Positions 1-56,335 of a DNA stretch of 64,000 bases are shown here, piece by piece. Location: positions 10,912,001 through 10,976,000 of the forward strand of contig OX597838.1 of the NCBI GenBank assembly GCA_951406725.2, in the 5' to 3' direction. The notes under the pieces are model-generated. The model ran no database searches. It was given only the letters and a program-made list of their open reading frames with translations, and was not told where the DNA came from. This DNA is from Octopus vulgaris. Its lineage: Eukaryota. The translations under genes were made by a program, and so were the position numbers. The stretch's first letter is position 1. Each line of letters opens with the position of its first letter.

Positions 1-364
1 AATACTCAATGGTTATTTAACAAATTTAATCTTGTCCAATGAAGACAAAAACACCAATAATTATATAACACTGGGTTTTATTTGAGAATCTTTTTTTAAA
101 TTTAAAAAAAGGAGAGAAAATGTCAAAAAAAAATTGCTGAAGGAAAAATAAAATTTCATTGTTTTATCATTGTTTTTGCTTTGCTATCGATAATTTAATT
201 TTTAAATTGACAGGATTTGTTTAATGAATAAAATTTAATTATAATAAAAAAAATCAAATTGTATAAGGCGGTTTATTGGTTATTTTTTTTAACCAGTATT
301 TAATGAATGGTCTTAGGAAATTTTCAGTGAATCCTATTTAAAAAAAATAAAAAATATGTAAAAT

Positions 365-505
365 AATTCTTTCTACTATAGGTACAAGGCTTGAAGTTTC
401 TGTGGATTACATCAGCCCCTGTGCCCAACCGATATTTTATTTTATTAACCCTGAAAGGATGAAAGGCAAAGTCAACCTTGGCAACATTTGAACTCAGAAC
501 ACAAA
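365..505 (-). mobile_element. Degenerate SINE family A copy (old ...GTAGAAAG(ATT)n tail)
   Basis: Reverse complement matches family A body (gttcaaat, gactttgcctttcatcctttc); CpGs decayed. Confidence 0.7.
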
Positions 506-539
506 GCGATGATAACTATGGCACTCTTCTATTTATTTC

Positions 540-540
<1 letters not shown>

Positions 541-594
<54 letters not shown>
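541..594. repeat. (AAT)n microsatellite
   Basis: Pure TAA run. Confidence 0.95.
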
Positions 595-595
<1 letters not shown>

Positions 596-635
596 GATTT
601 AAAAAAAAAAATGAATGAACTAGTGAGTTTAGTTT

Positions 636-735
636 AATGGCCCTACCAATGTATACTATGAGTTTCTTTGCCCTAGGAGTCGGGAAGACACTCGGCAAGA
701 AATGGAAGGAAATTTGAAAGAAGAAGAAAAAAAGA
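636..735 (+). mobile_element. Short dispersed repeat, probable 3' end of an R4/Dong-like LINE
   Basis: gagtttct..gccc.agg.gtc...gaagacactcggcaagaaat recurs at about 23530-23610; both copies are followed by AAT/ATT repeats; family assignment is inference. Confidence 0.4.
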
Positions 736-758
736 TAACAATAATAATAATAATAATA

Positions 759-790
<32 letters not shown>

Positions 791-18017: not shown

Positions 18018-20508
18018 TTCCTTTTATTGGCCACAAGGGCTTACATGAAAATAACACAAGACATAACAGGACGATACAGCGGGTTTTAAAAACGTGTAAA
18101 CAAAAATAAAATTAAATAAAACTCCCAATAGGGGCAGGCGCTTTAAGGCTACTCGTTGAAAAAACCCCACAAAAGCCTAGGTGCCTAACCAACGGGACAA
18201 GAGCCCTTTTTTTATATTTTATAGGCACATGCTCAAAATAGGTCCTTTCACACTGGCCATTTTCCCGACATTCACCCACCTTTCAGCAAATCACCCTCAC
18301 TTTCCTTTTCAAGTGAAACTTGAAAAGTTGTCGAGGGCTTGGCCAAAGAGGAAAGTGTCTGTCTTTAGCCCTTTCAAACGTATCTACCACACTACCTCTT
18401 TCGCTACAGCCACCAGAAAAATAAAAATTGCCTGCCCCACTCGGCCAAAGGAGGGCTGCGAGACAATTTTCACTATGGATTCAGCTGATAGCCGGATCCG
18501 TCCTACATGCAACAGTTCGACATAAACCCACAGGTCAGCAATGCTCGGGTACTGGACGAGTGCGTGCAGAAAGGTCTCGTCGCTCTGCGCGCATCTTCGA
18601 CAGGATCGGCTGACGACACTTCTATGCCTGTAGAGTTTATAGCGAACGGGCAGCGCCCCACCCCCACCGGTAGTACTGCCAAGTGAGGGATTTCTGGAAG
18701 TTATCTATAGGCCCGTCCCCACCCCGAAACTTCTCCGGAACAGATCGGTGAGTTGATCCTCATCGACACCCAGAGTTTCCCCGAGAACGTCGTCACACCT
18801 TTCTTCCACTAACCCTCTATAGAACGCTAGAGTTGAACTACCACCGATCGCATTGCCCGCCTGGCGGAGGACTGTGTGCGCTTGATGGCACTCGAGGTGC
18901 CAAGCGCCTCTCCTCGGTCTACGCCTAATCTAAGATTGCAGGTCAGTCAAAGAGAAGTGCTGTGGGAGAGCGAGTCTAACAAACGGTGACCTCACCTGCT
19001 CACCGTCAAGAAACGCTGGAGATGTCGCAGCCTGAGCGCATCTGTTGACAGCAGATGGAGCACCTTACCAGCGGGACGCAACCCCTCCACAGAAAGAGAA
19101 AGAGTATGCGGACCAGCTTGTTCAGCCAACATAAAGAGCAAGGGATGACGGTCAAGTGGTAATAGATTGATGGATGTGATGTACGCATTCGCCACCTCGG
19201 CTCGACCTTTCAGAGACAGCTTCTTCTCGGCCCATTTCTGAGTGAGATTGGCCACCCTGTTCGTCACCAGTTTTTCTCCACCTGGAGGTCTGGACCGAAT
19301 CAGACTCCGAGCAATTTAACCGGATCGCCTGATCAGCGCCTCATGACGCTATTTGACGGCATGGACTTGCTCTTCCAGGTGCCGAGTTGCAAACCCACTG
19401 ATTTTTCTGCGTTAAATTTTGCTCATGTCACCGCCTCATAGATTTTAGTGTGTCGTCAATGAGGTTAATGTGTCTGTGGATCGACACTATGACGGTGACA
19501 TCATCGGCATAAGCAGACAAGCTTCTCTCACGTCCTACATCATGCGGAATGCCCCTCAATGCCTCCATCTTCCGGGACAACAGTGGATCAAGAGTCGGTA
19601 CGTACAGAAGGGAAGAGAGAGGGTACCCTTGACGGACTGAGCGCAAGATACCGAATGGTTCTGACAGGTGACCATTCACCCGAACTACCGGGCTGATCCA
19701 ACGGCGGAAAACTGGACCGGAACCGGTTGCCGCGAGAACAGCCGCAAAGTATTGGTAGGTGACCCTATCGAAGGCTTTAGATTGATCTAAATTTATCAGA
19801 GCCCCACCCATGCCAGCTTCGTTACCTACCCACTCTATGATGTAGTGCAAGAGGTGGAGGTTGTCGCGAATAGTCCTGGTTGGAATGGCGCATATTTGTG
19901 CATTGCCAATCAGCTTATTCAAGACAAGCGCCAACCTTTTTGCTAACACCTTGGCCAAAATCTTCAGCTCTGCATTGAGAAGAGTGATGGGCCTGAAATT
20001 CTCTATAACGTTCCCCTTGTTTGGGTCCTTTTTCAGCAGTGCCACCGCCCCTCGACAAACAAAAGCTGGAATTCTCCCATTGTGTTGCCAGTTGCGGTAG
20101 ACGTCTGCTAAGAGGTTCGAAAACAACTCTAGCATAGAAATATAAAGCTCGTAGGGCAGATCATCCAAACACGGCGATCTGCTTCTCGCGCAGCCCTTCA
20201 TCGCTTCCTGTATTTCCGAGGCTATTATCGGCCTTTCGCAGCGCTCCACCTCGCTCGTCGAGCGTGTTGGCACGCCGTCCCGGTAGATACCGAAGTCTGC
20301 CCTATTATCCGTCCTACCACTCGAACCGACGGTCGAGCAAAGTGCTGCTCAACTGCCGCATATATCTGCTTCGGTTCAGACATCTCGCACCCGTTCTGGT
20401 CCACCAAAGACCGAATGGTGGCTTGGTTGCCACATTTTTCCTTCGCCACTCGGGCCCATTGAGTGGCTTTCGTTCCCTCTCCGCTTAGTGAACGTGCCTT
20501 AGCTCTTT
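18018..20508 (-). mobile_element. 5'-truncated Tx1 (L1-clade) non-LTR retrotransposon, decayed
   Basis: RT ORF; LSLKGRAEVANAY; CRRCAQSDETFLHA zinc-knuckle region; 3' end gcccttgtggccAATAAAagg abutting (ATT)n. Confidence 0.9.
19428..20273 (-). pseudogene. Tx1-type reverse transcriptase fragment
   Basis: NFRPITLLNAELKILAKVLAKRL, INLDQSKAFDRV, VRQGYPLS, SAYADDVT; frameshifts on both sides. Confidence 0.9.
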
Positions 20509-35155: not shown

Positions 35156-36047
35156 CAAGGTGCGATGGGTATATTGTTACCATTTTTATATTTTTTATTT
35201 TGCACATGCGCATGGCTTGTTTTTGATTTTGTCGACTACACAGTATAGTAGGGTCAGTTGAGCACCATCTGTGAGGAAAACAGCACCATGATGCAATTCA
35301 CTCAGCCAGAAATTTGGAAACGACATACTGTACTGCTTGGTATTCGCAGCCGGAAGCTCCAGTATGAGCATTTCAGCGTGTTTGCGTGTCAATCTAAGGA
35401 CATGTACCGAGAGGGATAAAAATCAAACGTCCAGCCAACATAATGGTGTTTGGAGTGATCACTAGTGATGGCGACGTTATGCCTCCATTCATCTTCCCAC
35501 ATGGTCTCAGACTCATGGAGTTCTACATGTGTATATGTAGGAATCCATATACATGGAGTCCTACAAGTGCTGTCCTGGGTCAAGAGAGTGGCTGCTGGAA
35601 GCCCCTATGTCTGGCAACAAGATTCTGCACCATTCCACACAAGCAGGAGAACCCAGTCATGGCTGTCAGACAATTTCTACAACCACATCGCCCCTAACAT
35701 CTGGCCACCTAACTCCCCAGACTGCAATCCCCTTGATTATCATGTGTTGGGCACAGTTGAGCGAGAGGCCAACAAAACTCCTTGTAGCACCAAAGATGAA
35801 CTGAAGGCAAGGATTATGCCAGCATTCACCAACTTAAACAAGAAAACCGTCCTGAAGAGTTGTAGGAGATTCCGAAGTCGTCTAGAGGCCGTGGTTGAAG
35901 CCAATGGCGATTTTTATTGAATAAGTTTACCCTTTAGTATTTCAAGATATTTTTATGTAATTTTGGTAAATATATCTGTTAAAATGAGATATCAGTGTTA
36001 TTTTCATTTCCGCATAATTTAGACGACAGTTTATTCACCGCACCCTG
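35156..36047 (+). mobile_element. Tc1/mariner DD37D (maT) transposon remnant, internally deleted
   Basis: MVFGVITSDG; WQQD then 37 residues to the D of WPPNSPDCNPLDY; termini TA|CAAGGTGCG ... CGCACCCTG. Confidence 0.85.
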
Positions 36048-50759: not shown

Positions 50760-51575
50760 AGCATAGCTATGGTCCGAAAATTATCAATATGATCGCCTAT
50801 GTTTGGGTTCTTTCTCAGCAGTACTACAGTTCCTCGACTCACTAAACTTAGAGTTCGCCTGTTCTATTAGTTGCAGCAGATGTCTTACCAAAAGATCTTC
50901 AAACAGGTCTGGCATGTAAAAGTAAAGCTCGAAGAGCAGACCACTCAAAACCAGGCGATTTGCTTACTGTGCAGCTAATCAACGCTTCCCGTATTTCCGC
51001 TGCTGTTATCGACTTTTTTGCCATATTCCACTTCCTTCGTCGGGAGTTGCGGTAGGCTGGTGAGGTAGTATTTAAAATCCATCCTATGTCCCGAAACGTC
51101 ATTCGAGCCGAAGAGTCGAATGAAGTGCTGCTGAAATATCGTGGACATCTGTTTGGTCTTGAGTATTATGTGGCCATTATGATCCCCCAAAGATCAACTT
51201 GTTGCCACGTTGCGCTTCTGTCATTCAGGTCCACCGAGCAGCTTTAGTTCCGTTGTATTTTAGAGCACGCGCTTTAGTTCTGACAATATATATTTCTTTA
51301 CTACCCACAAGGGGCTAAACACAGAGAGGACAAACAAGGACAGACAAACGGATTAAGTCGATTATATCGACTCCAGTGCGTAACTGGTACTTAATTTATC
51401 GACCCCGAAAGGATGAAAGGCAAAGTCGACCTCCGTTGTGCTTCGCGTCGAGGGCAATCTCACCGCAAGTATGTTGGCTGTGATACCTTTTCCTAGGGGC
51501 CTCTTGAAAATTTCTGACTCCCCCTCTTTACTATTTTTTTCTCTATCGTTACAACCTTACTAAATCTAACTGACT
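50760..51575 (-). mobile_element. Tx1-type ORF2 fragment interrupted by a SINE A piece (51291-51434)
   Basis: ITAAEIREALISCTVSKSPG; RGTVVLLRKNPNIGDHIDNFRTI; homologous to 19970-20508. Confidence 0.8.
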
Positions 51576-52217
51576 CTACAATAATCGCAACTCATAAGAA
51601 GGCGTTTTGCCTTTTTTTAATTCTTTCAAATTTAGAATAATTTCTTTAGTTCTTTGGCAGTAAGGCGTCAGCGAAATCGCTAGATTTACAAGTTGTGCTT
51701 TCCTTTTATTTTGTGTGTCTGTCGGCGTTAATCGTGTGCAGCTTGTATGTGTGATGAGTGGAAAATAGGACATTTTAAAATTGTCTATGGTCATATCTTT
51801 GCTATCGTCATTGCTTTTAATTTCCTTGATAGTGTTGGTGTTTTTCATGTGCATTGTTGTTGTCGCTGTTGTGTCGGTGTTTGGCTTTAGTAGTAGTAGT
51901 AGTAGTGGTGGTGGAAAGGTGAGAAATCGGTGTCAAAACATCTGTTCTGATATCTGGTTTCATTCACCTCGTTGGCAATTTGCCGAAAATTTCGACGCCA
52001 TGTTTGGTTACTGTTTTTCTTCTTCTTCATAAATTGTGTAAATTTTTTAGAAAACCAAAAAACCTAAATTCTGCCAGGAAGAGCGAAATTTTAACAAAGC
52101 CAACTGGCCTCAGAGGACGCTATATGGCTTATTAACACGATGGCGCAGCAAAAACACAAATAACTTTCTTTAAATCAACAAAATTCAATAACACCTCACG
52201 AGCTCCTTGCAAGCACA

Positions 52218-52610
52218 GTGGAAGCACTCCGTCTGTTACGACGATGAGGGTTCCGGTTGATCCGAATCAACGGAACAGCCTGCTCGTGAAATTAACGTGT
52301 AAGTGGCTGAGCACTCCACAGACACGTGTACCCTTAACGTAGTTCTCGGGGATATTCAGCATGACACAGAGAGTGACAAGGCCGGCCCTTTGAAATACAG
52401 GTACAACAGAAACAGGAAGTAAGAGCGAGAGAGAAAGTTGTGGTGAAAGTTGTGGTACAGCAGGGATCACCACCATCCACTGCCGGAGCCTCGTGGAGCT
52501 TTTAGGTGTTTTTGCTCAATAAACACCCACAACGTCCGGTCTGGGAATCGAAACCGCGTACCTATGACCGCGAGTCCGCTGCCCTAACCACTGGGCCATT
52601 GCGCCTCCAC
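52218..52610 (-). mobile_element. SINE family C, full length with 13-bp TSD
   Basis: ccttgcaagcaca at 52205-52217 and 52611-52623. Confidence 0.92.
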
Positions 52611-52644
52611 CCTTGCAAGCACAATAACAACAGCAACAACAATA

Positions 52645-53029
52645 CATTTTCCTTTCTACTATAGCCACAAGGCCTGAAATTTTAGGAGAGGGGGCTAGTC
52701 GAAACTGGTACTTATCTCATCGACCCCGAATTAATGAAAAGCAAAGTCGACCTCGGTGGTATCTGAACTCAGAACGTGATGACAAATAAAATACCTATTT
52801 CTTTACTACCCACAAGGGGCTAAACACAGAGGGGACAAACAAGGACAGACATAGGTATTAAGTCGATTACATCGACCCCAGTGCGTAACTGGTACTTAAT
52901 TTATCGACCCTGAAAGGATGAAAGGCAAAGTCGACCTCGGCGGAATTTGAACTCACAACGTAACGGCAGACGAAATACCGCTAAGCATTTCGCCCGGCGT
53001 GCTAACAATTCTGCCAACTCGCCGCCTCC

Positions 53030-53062
<33 letters not shown>

Positions 53063-53445
53063 CCTTTCTATTACAGGTACAAGGCGCGAAATTTGCGGGG
53101 AGGGGGTAAGTAGATTACATCGACCCCAGTACGTAACTGGTACTTAATCGACCCCGAAAGGATGAAAGGCAAAGTCAATTTGAACTCAGAACGTAGCGAC
53201 GGGCGAAATACCTATTCCTTTACTACCCACAAGGGGCTAAACACAGAGAGGACAAACAAGGACAGACAAACGGATTAAGTCGATTATATCGACCCCAGTG
53301 CGTAACTGGTACTTATTTAATCGATCCCGAAAGAATGAAAGGCAAAGTCGACCTCGGCGGAATTTGAACTCAGAACGTAGCGGCAGACGAAATACCGCTA
53401 AGCATTTCGCCCGGCGTGCTAACGTTTCTGCCAGCTCGCCACCTT
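52645..53445 (-). mobile_element. Two SINE A dimers (young-tail unit upstream of old-tail unit)
   Basis: 52645-53028 and 53060-53445; junctions at aataggtattt. Confidence 0.88.
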
Positions 53446-53446
53446 A

Positions 53447-53481
<35 letters not shown>

Positions 53482-53483
<2 letters not shown>

Positions 53484-53659
53484 GGCGCAGGAGTGGCTGT
53501 GTGGTAAGAAGCTTGCTTCCCAACCACATGTTCAGGGTTCAGTTCCACTGTGTGGAATCTCAGGCAAGTGTCTTCTACTATAGCCTCGGTACGACCAAAG
53601 CCATGAGAGTGGATTTGGGAGACGGAAACTGAAAGAAGCCCGTCGTATGTAATAAGTGT

Positions 53660-53693
<34 letters not shown>

Positions 53694-53872
53694 CCACCAT
53701 CGCTTGACAACCGATGTTGGTGAGTTTACGTCCCCGTAAGCTAGCGGTTCGGCAAAAGAGAATAAGTACTAGGCTTACAAAGAATAAGTCCCAGGGTCGA
53801 TGCGTTCGGTTGTTAATAGGCGGTGCTCCAGCATGGCCTGCAGTCAGATGATTGAAACAAGTAAAAGAATAA
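53482..53872 (+). mobile_element. SINE family B
   Basis: Family match. Confidence 0.9.
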
Positions 53873-54759: not shown

Positions 54760-54995
54760 AACAAAGGCGACTAAAGAAGGGGAATTTTCCTTGTTTTGTC
54801 TGTCCTTTACTCTATTTTTTCGTTGTTTCAGAAAAATGTCCATTTCCTTGGTTTTGTGTTTATGTTTTCGTTTCTCATTGTGTTCGACGTTTTATTTTTT
54901 TTGGTGTCCTGTACCCATATATGCATGTATATATACATGAAGAGGTAGGTACGTACATAGATGTATGTATATATGCATATGTTTTATTTATTTAT

Positions 54996-55000
<5 letters not shown>
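54760..55000 (+). mobile_element. TA-anchored dispersed repeat (same family as 45750-45995)
   Basis: Sequence match; ends in (TA)n. Confidence 0.6.
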
Positions 55001-55034
<34 letters not shown>

Positions 55035-55112
55035 TCCCGGGTTGATTCGGGGTTAACCACAGTAAATAAGGTACTCAATACATAGCAGAGTAAAATTAAT
55101 TTATTATATAGA

Positions 55113-55215
55113 AGGAGCTTCTACAGGACTAGAACTGTTTCATTCAAGAGAAATCATCAGGAAGCTTCCTGATGATTTCTCTTGAATGAAACAGTTCTAG
55201 TCCTGTAGAAGCTCC

Positions 55216-55216
<1 letters not shown>
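55113..55216. repeat. Perfect 104-bp palindrome
   Basis: 52-bp arms are exact reverse complements; centre AAGCTT. Confidence 0.95.
55159..55216 (+). ncRNA. Type I hammerhead ribozyme motif (mirror copy on the minus strand, 55113-55170)
   Basis: agcttc-CTGATGA(55169)-t-ttc-tctt-gaa-t-GAAA-cag-ttctagtc-ct-GTA(55205-55207)-gaagct. Confidence 0.7.
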
Positions 55217-55248
<32 letters not shown>

Positions 55249-55256
<8 letters not shown>

Positions 55257-55432
55257 TACATTAAAAGGCTTCCAATAAAGAAGCAAGTGCTAGATACACA
55301 AAGAGGGGATAAATTCGTGATTAGCTGAGATGGTAAACGTTTTTGATTTTCTTTCCATTTCATGAATTTATCCCCTCTTTGTGTATCTAGCACTTGCTTC
55401 TTTATTGGAAGCCTTTTAATGTACTTATATAT
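55249..55432. repeat. Inverted repeat, ~70-bp arms and ~40-bp spacer, in (TA)n
   Basis: ataagtacattaaaagg...ggggataaattc / gaatttatcccc...ccttttaatgtacttat. Confidence 0.92.
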
Positions 55433-55547
55433 CAATAACGTATAGTCTAATTACTAATTCGTCTTTTGTGCTAGGTCACTGGTAATAATAATTTATTTTT
55501 ATTACCCTTTTTACTATGTTTTAAATATATATATATATATATATATA

Positions 55548-55705
55548 CTTTATTTTAAGCAGCAGAAAATTCAACAAAAACTGTTACTCTGAGTTTCTCG
55601 TTGCCGTTCATCAGACAGTTTTTTCTAGCAAAAACTGTCTGATGAACGGCAACGAGAAACTCAGAGTAACAGTTTTTGTTGAATTTTCTGCTGCTTAAAA
55701 TAAAG
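55548..55705. repeat. 158-bp palindrome with one mismatched pair
   Basis: Centre CTAG at 55625-55628. Confidence 0.95.
55630..55677 (+). ncRNA. Minimal type I hammerhead ribozyme motif (mirror copy on the minus strand, 55576-55623)
   Basis: aaaaactgt-CTGATGA-a-cg-GCAA-cg-a-GAAAC-tc-a-ga-GTA-acagttttt; 9-bp stem I, GNRA loop II, palindromic stem III. Confidence 0.75.
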
Positions 55706-55774
55706 CATATTACTCTACCACTGGTATTTGAGTACTCTTTTTTCCACCTTGTTTCACATTTATGTGTTTACTCC

Positions 55775-55829
<55 letters not shown>

Positions 55830-55834
<5 letters not shown>

Positions 55835-56272
55835 TTCGACGGGCTTCCTTCAGTTTCCGTCTACCAAATCCACTCACAAGGCTTTGGTCGGCCCGAAGCT
55901 ATAGTAGAAGACACTAGCCCAAGATGCCACGCAGTGGGACTGAACCCGGAACCATGTAGTTAGTAAGCAAGCTACTTACCACACAGCCACTCCCCCGCCT
56001 GTTTAAGTGGGGTAATAAATATTGCCTCTTGGTAATTAATACTGGCTCAGCCGCTAATATATATATTTCTTCACTAATGTATGCCAAGTGAGACATATAG
56101 GCACAGGAGTGGCTGTGTGGTAAGTAGCTTGCTAACAAACCACATGGTTCCGGGTTCAGTCCCACTGCGTGGCATCTTGGGCAAGTGTCTTCAGCTATAG
56201 CCCCGGGCCAACCAATGCCTTGTGAGTGGATTTGGTAGACGGAAACTGAAAGAAGCCTGTCGTATATATGTG

Positions 56273-56335
<63 letters not shown>

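Follow-up and report, generated by a model that had tools for sequence, protein, structure and literature searches.

The exact palindrome at 55113-55216 of the window (the whole 64-kb stretch of Octopus vulgaris DNA that was analysed) belongs, judging from its sequence, to a 193-bp stub without promoter that derives from a Hydra-clade Penelope-like retrotransposon (PLE) and lies in a TA microsatellite. The unit reads as the first 135 nt of the element joined head-to-head to another copy that covers only ~65 nt from its start. The reading favoured here, with a probability of about 0.7, is that both cut strands of the TA target prime reverse transcription near the 5' end of the element RNA, that the two cDNAs run off the cap, and that their ends join via AGCT. 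Taken by itself, the palindrome is an unremarkable footprint left by a new family within a known clade, and its layout is already known; the value of the analysis lies in the junction statistics of the family, in which an extra G makes the mechanism of mirror insertions testable.

The insertion, its family and its parent element

The palindrome (104 bp) consists of two 52-bp arms without spacer, and 3e-26 palindromes of this kind are expected by chance per 64-kb window. Unit positions are numbered from +1, the A of AGCTTCC at window position 55166 on the minus strand. The features of the locus are as follows:

55113..55216, no strand: exact palindrome with 52-bp arms
55032..55166, minus strand: tail-bearing arm, corresponding to +1..+135 of the parent 5' UTR (+1 = 55166), 95.6-100% identical to parent ends and heads
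55163..55224, plus strand: tail-less inverted arm, corresponding to +1..+65 with a 3-nt loss at +55..+57
55163..55166, no strand: AGCT, at which both arms have their +1..+4; a palindrome of 4 bp native to the parent, where the arms meet, and likely RNA start
55032..55098, minus strand: tail, +69..+135, the stretch separating two putative priming sites
55002..55032, no strand: (TA)n target, left side
55225..55254, no strand: (TA)n target, right side
55116..55166, minus strand: type I hammerhead motif, predicted cut after 55122
55163..55213, plus strand: type I hammerhead motif, predicted cut after 55207

The exactness of the palindrome and the restriction of the tail (55032-55112) to one side had both been reported in the initial annotation and are confirmed. 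It gave the axis as AAGCTT, within stem I; the palindrome native to the parent is only the 4-bp AGCT, preceded by T in 96 of 99 parent occurrences (these come from overlapping loci and are not independent). The right arm resumes after the 3-nt loss and extends to 55224; arms of the family usually end at unit position 60-72, and that of the window seems shorter than these 60-72 nt because 3 nt were lost.

The family was explored with a 36-nt piece of the tail, which has 3340 exact matches in the genome (reversed control, 0). The first 100 of these matches, in order along contig 1, were taken as an unbiased sample. Short two-armed copies account for 59 of the 100, and long copies have the same ends. 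This agrees with the PLE layout in which an inverted copy, truncated at its 5' end, adjoins the 5' end and a tail is present at one end only, and with the inverted partial repeat with a one-sided tail of the initial description. At the tail end, 98 of the 100 copies run into TA- or CA-type repeats. Insertion ends abut TA repeats at +135 or ~+68, both of them AT-rich spots, and long copies terminate at +135 or +68. The centres of the unbiased copies vary widely; a perfect 30-nt centre is common to 645 loci genome-wide, which bears out the expected recurrence of the axis. A second set comprised the 40 scored matches out of 1153 candidates, all 99-100% identical over tail and palindrome. These were chosen for likeness; the idea of a fixed axis, suggested at first by 30 of 30 copies, was rejected as an effect of such selection.

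The palindrome occurs in both subfamilies, with arms that match each other in 49 of the first 50 loci, and each type of centre is found in both subfamilies and in both orientations. In 56 copies, 76 changes are symmetric and 49 asymmetric between the arms. Rare base changes were found in both arms of the same copy at L035, L043 and L044, as is expected if the arms have one source sequence or correct each other. The family is young and dispersed.

The parent was traced by excluding the palindrome from the search pattern, which led to copies with other upstream DNA, long insertions and tandem copies. A single intact ORF of 713 aa was found in one copy, and the monomer measures 4784 nt in one copy, from +1 to the next +1. 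The parent has TATAAA at -29 and a hammerhead at +1..+51; arms stop 29 nt behind TATAAA and 183 nt before the parent ATG, and tandem heads continue from +1 past +135 into the ORF, which begins at +184. The ORF carries RDDG and LVY..YIG, a reverse transcriptase being followed by a C-terminal GIY-YIG nuclease. Its Atlas neighbours (0.96-0.99) bear HTH_animal, GIY-YIG and RVT_1, and a Pfam scan of the ORF gave nothing relevant.

Several marks are shared with the Hydra clade of PLEs described in Craig et al. 2021 (PMC8557442). These are a single ORF with C-terminal GIY-YIG, DKT in place of DKG, RWR (RWK), a CxCx5C linker (CNCPDKTTC), absence of CCHH (LVY and YIG have just a single Cys between them), CxxC (CDLC) and CxH (CMH) around the conserved E and N, a (TA)n target and a hammerhead. 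The monomer differs in its length of 4.8 kb, reached through a 2.5-kb microsatellite-rich 3' region, from Hydra elements, which are generally <3 kb, a descriptive rather than diagnostic trait. By these motifs and by a match made by eye to the alignment in the supplement of PMC8557442, the parent is classified as a Hydra-clade element, in agreement with the Penelope-like origin first proposed. It is not Hydra-1_Obim: the hammerhead differs, and two motifs of the window family are absent from those portions of the supplement text that were compared. About 2.5 kb of TA/TG microsatellite-like DNA in the 3' region move with the element (L211:7914-10000, L212:1-372). A second Penelope-type ORF (710 aa, with DKT and CxCx5C) is nested near a family copy at L120:2730-4859, with an inverted repeat of 846 bp.

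Hammerhead motifs and predicted RNA folding

Only two sites in the 64-kb window fit a type I hammerhead descriptor, one per strand of the palindrome, each with a 6-bp stem I, CTGATGA, a 3-bp stem II with T-T closing, GAAA, a 4-bp stem III and GUA. The core (CUGANGA, GAAA and UH with stems I and III) is present; the G10.1-C11.1 closing pair is replaced by T-T at 10.1-11.1. The candidate hammerhead that the initial annotation placed on both strands is upheld by these matches, and so is the conservation of core nucleotides across copies, core columns being 95-100% kept in 100 arms, with the in-motif subfamily changes on N7 and loop II. Both arms have an intact core in 24 of the 59 short two-armed copies. 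Since the family is young, core retention would give mild support for selection in the source elements. The proposed check against Rfam was negative: a hammerhead match was absent from the whole window at gathering scores, and searches of 54900-55800 up to E 10 gave 0 hammerheads among 87 matches, with generic hairpin (miRNA) matches only.

The motif resembles the hammerheads of PLEs (Cervera and de la Pena 2014, PMC4209133) in being a type I motif in a PLE repeat with a palindromic loop III (CTAG) and in forming an opposite-strand pair, as the same paper notes for Schistosoma. It differs by its 4-bp stem III with an 8-nt loop, by a short stem II without G10.1-C11.1, and by the overlap of two motifs at their first four bases. 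PLE hammerheads are described there as cleaving poorly alone, and a dimer has been described; loop III of the window motif permits a predicted dimer (-12.8 kcal/mol).

The predicted ensemble share with stems I and III is 0.24 for +1..52, 0.03 for +1..68 and 0.009 for +1..135, where a hairpin at ~+41..+59 occupies the cut site; the 3-nt loss in the window removes this hairpin on the plus arm. Compared with shuffles, the arms have no advantage in fold energy (z -0.6 to 0.3). For read-through RNA, the predicted energies are -92 kcal/mol for the duplex and -8 kcal/mol for the ribozyme (another calculation puts the duplex ahead by ~70 kcal/mol), and the predicted probability of the ribozyme stems is ~1e-50. 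The switch between duplex and self-cleavage that had been suggested is not retained, because the duplex wins by ~70 kcal/mol and the antisense arm is transcribed first. The hammerheads of the palindrome are predicted to be passengers from the parent 5' UTR, off in read-through RNA.

The stub has lost the TATA box. Of the 35 ORFs of at least 150 aa in the 64-kb window, none was recognised as a host gene. A role of the palindrome RNA as ADAR or Dicer substrate is plausible but putative. Across the genome, stubs spread hundreds of perfect 60-70-bp hairpins, putative editing or small-RNA substrates where transcribed.

Beside the predicted cut site, G46 and/or G49 (+46 and +49; window 55121 and 55118) are missing from one arm only in 16 of 52 short two-armed copies and from both arms in 1, and from 0 of 70 long arms. 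This loss may be an artefact, the result of quasi-palindrome repair, or a jump over a cleaved template. Its use as a footprint of cleaved template was set aside, as it may reflect a quasi-palindrome or sequencing error.

Arm junctions and the origin of the head-to-head copies

The tail arm is intact to +1 in 59 of 100 copies, among which 26 stop at +1 (L187, a mutated perfect centre, being counted as such), 3 stop at -11 to -14 and 30 continue for at least 25 nt; the other 41 fall short of +1 or are altered there. A G is found at -1 in 20 of the 26 non-perfect +1 ends (p 4e-8 against 0.25), and the parent base at this position is G in 0 of 99 occurrences (T, C or A in all; overlapping loci). 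Genome-wide, G at -1 was found on both arms in 99 loci, with a filler of 0-20 nt, versus 47 loci with G on neither arm; by eye, ~42 of the latter are no stops, since their sequence goes on into the DNA that lies upstream in the parent. Loci with a filler and G on a single arm are outside these two counts. A centre shorter by one base is present in 290 loci, compared with 20 for a control loss of one base two bases away.

It is inferred from these ends that +1 is probably the capped transcription start of the element RNA, and that the extra G would derive from a C added opposite the cap. In LTR elements, minus-strand strong-stop DNA is a short cDNA arising from priming near the 5' end. Full-length L1 5' ends offer a parallel, with run-off at a capped end and one untemplated G (PMC4038843 cites both the extra G at such ends and cap copying by reverse transcriptase); the difference from L1 and from LTR strong-stop DNA is that two target-primed cDNAs are here joined to each other. 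The available portions of PMC7353768 and PMC13000458 add nothing on caps. At one locus (L286:6887-7651) three +1 ends occur, each preceded by G (an inverted +1..135, +1..767 with an internal loss, and +1..70), and one G-preceded end continues into the ORF; this layout resembles the product of a template jump from end to end that builds a partial tandem.

According to the favoured reading, both cut strands of the TA microsatellite would prime reverse transcription near the 5' end of the element RNA, at the AT-rich sites +135..141 and +60..72. Each cDNA would run off the capped 5' end of the sense RNA and gain an untemplated C opposite the cap, read as the extra G at -1, and the two ends would anneal through the 4-bp AGCT. 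The perfect centre (645 loci) would result if the extra C is lost, the centre one base shorter (290 loci) if it pairs across a bulge, and the centre with G on both arms (99 loci) if the cDNAs are joined end to end. Priming at the first copy of the sites would produce stubs, and priming at a copy reached by read-through the long insertions; the +135/~+68 ends are the same in both.

Arm lengths were compared in 13 long-insertion loci. The long arm is the tail-less one in L113, L217, L218 and the L111/L117/L118 group, and the tail arm in L115 and L214; neither end of L114 or of L213 bears a tail, and the remainder is uninformative on arm length. Either arm can thus exceed the other by kilobases (the tail-less one in four independent insertions, the tail arm in two), so neither can be a DNA copy of the other without later deletion. 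As the arms nearly always share subfamily bases, double priming needs two RNAs from one source locus; such sharing is also expected if one arm was copied from the other.

The latter is what a snap-back at AGCT, or self-priming on an antisense template (PMC3846280), followed by copying back of the strand would bring about. Besides the common subfamily bases of the arms, the position of the commonest centre on a self-complementary 4-mer and the frequent folding at other native palindromes of copies that pass +1 are consistent with it. It is nevertheless considered unlikely. Both arms carry G with only 1-2 nt between the two G-bearing ends in 36 of the first 50 listed loci, and such a filler is too short for the loop of a snap-back hairpin; the four insertions with a tail-less arm longer by kilobases also count against it, and the copied arm would have to halt at +60..72 every time. 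As to self-priming, the extra G tracks the end of the sense RNA and not the antisense template. Snap-back at a native 6-bp palindrome, the origin put forward in the initial annotation, is therefore not supported: the native palindrome is of 4 bp, and the junctions point to two separate cDNA ends.

Two primings with a +1 that is not the transcription start are likewise improbable. The ends would then be random cDNA ends selected for AGCT, or a processed end (an AG/C acceptor or a nuclease stop) to which the enzyme adds C. Many centres do lie away from +1, and the D. virilis intron ends at hammerhead helix I (PMC4209133). The neighbouring family described below accumulates at its native CTAG (11 of 30 listed copies) with no clear extra G by eye, which counts against the cap reading because microhomology alone would give such a pile-up. 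Also counted against a cap are the internal promoter without TATA of D. virilis Penelope (PMC2377424) and a possible AG/C splice acceptor at +1. The G could stem from terminal C addition at any RNA end, capped or not, and some cases of G on a single arm are readable as microhomology with the partner arm. Against a +1 that is not the start, arms halt at +1 even where AGCT was not used in joining, TATAAA lies at -29, and only one base (G), with no common upstream exon, precedes +1. Splicing at AG/C was rejected as the source of the foreign sequence found before +1 in contigs of two runs (RNA by guess only), which matches a genomic copy (L251). Among the listed sequencing runs that contain the sequence, six are RNA by guess and none is recorded as RNA.

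Copying of the whole palindromic unit as a self-propagating non-autonomous element, MITE- or retrozyme-like, is very improbable. It would fit the 99-100% identity over the unit of 40/40 scored matches and the centre common to 645 loci, but those matches were picked for likeness and unbiased copies have many centres, each type of which occurs in both subfamilies and both orientations; moreover, stubs lack the TATA box and all sequence behind +135, and tandem arrays are absent. MITEs have fixed terminal inverted repeats and are copied as a unit; the one-sided tail and the variable centre and outer end do not correspond to this definition. Non-LTR retrozymes are head-to-tail tandem repeats with a hammerhead per unit (bioRxiv 10.64898/2026.07.22.740005), and short tandem arrays were absent from the 100 copies. 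A fold-back artefact of assembly or library is hardly credible, for although none of the listed short-read contigs (from four runs covering the family) spans the window axis by 31 letters, and the one-arm loss of G46/G49, confined to short palindromes, may be sequencing error, the ends are fixed, the targets are TA, kilobase-long copies with unequal arms have the same layout, and the extra G follows a TATA-defined site.

For PLEs, the literature already describes inverted copies truncated at the 5' end, tails on one side, a bias towards TA and hammerheads (PMC8557442, PMC2377424, PMC3846280). Insertions of endonuclease-bearing PLEs (Arkhipova et al. 2013, PMC3846280; Craig 2021, legend of Fig. 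2) share with the present family the head-to-head inverted copy, the palindrome at the junction, the one-sided tail, a putative TATA box and initiator in the pLTR, and the AT-rich target. They differ in the tail, of 30-40 nt there and ~67 nt here, and in that the whole insertion here consists of the two ends only. PMC3846280 explains palindromes by self-priming on an antisense template, whereas the junctions analysed here point to two sense-RNA run-offs; the word "cap" is absent from the available text of that paper. The formation of tandem and inverted PLE structures is named as unsolved in PMC8557442.

In vitro work on Poseidon PAc (Frangieh et al. 2024, PMC11167929) shows cleavage and extension of both strands of the target and two internal start sites that delimit the tail; RNA that has not been cleaved serves as template, and the hammerhead is dispensable for insertion. 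Cutting and extension of two strands and the use of two start sites correspond to what is proposed here; Poseidon PAc belongs to another clade, and inverted insertions and capped ends are not treated in the available text. Presence of G on both arms at a TATA-defined site offers a simple and testable alternative to antisense self-priming and ties in with these start sites and with two-strand extension.

The wider proposal, given somewhat better than even odds, is that PLE head-to-head palindromes in general arise when target-primed reverse transcription occurs twice on capped sense RNA: the two nicked strands would prime at the sites that bound the tail, and both cDNAs would copy the cap and join at their 3' ends. 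If this is true, stubs would be integrated strong-stop-like products, and the extra G would map the transcription start from DNA alone in any genome. No open-access paper was found that states a formation of PLE palindromes via two cap run-offs, most subscription papers being outside the scope of the search.

Other elements in the window

Two more inverted repeats lie within 600 bp of the palindrome, each in its own TA tract, and three different families adjoin in TA tracts within 750 bp. The insertion at 55548-55776 is an inverted, hammerhead-bearing one of another family, with 76-bp arms and the tail on the right. A 36-nt piece of it has 1450 exact genome matches; the 30 listed matches include 10 long copies and 11 whose joint lies at or next to the native CTAG just before stem I. 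Its long copies have an initiator-like CCATTCT and a TATA-like TATAGA upstream. The repeat at 55248-55525 represents a third family, with 69-bp arms, a 47-nt spacer and a tail; in longer copies of this family, a hammerhead whose loop II is long lies just upstream of the point at which the window copy starts.

Copies of abundant SINE-like repeats are found at 55810-56289, 53490-53870 and 51285-53477, one pair being inverted 98 bp apart; they presumably resemble octopus SINEs. The fragment at 19428-20348 (minus strand) resembles a LINE reverse transcriptase, and that at 35459-35920 (plus strand) a Tc1/mariner transposase.
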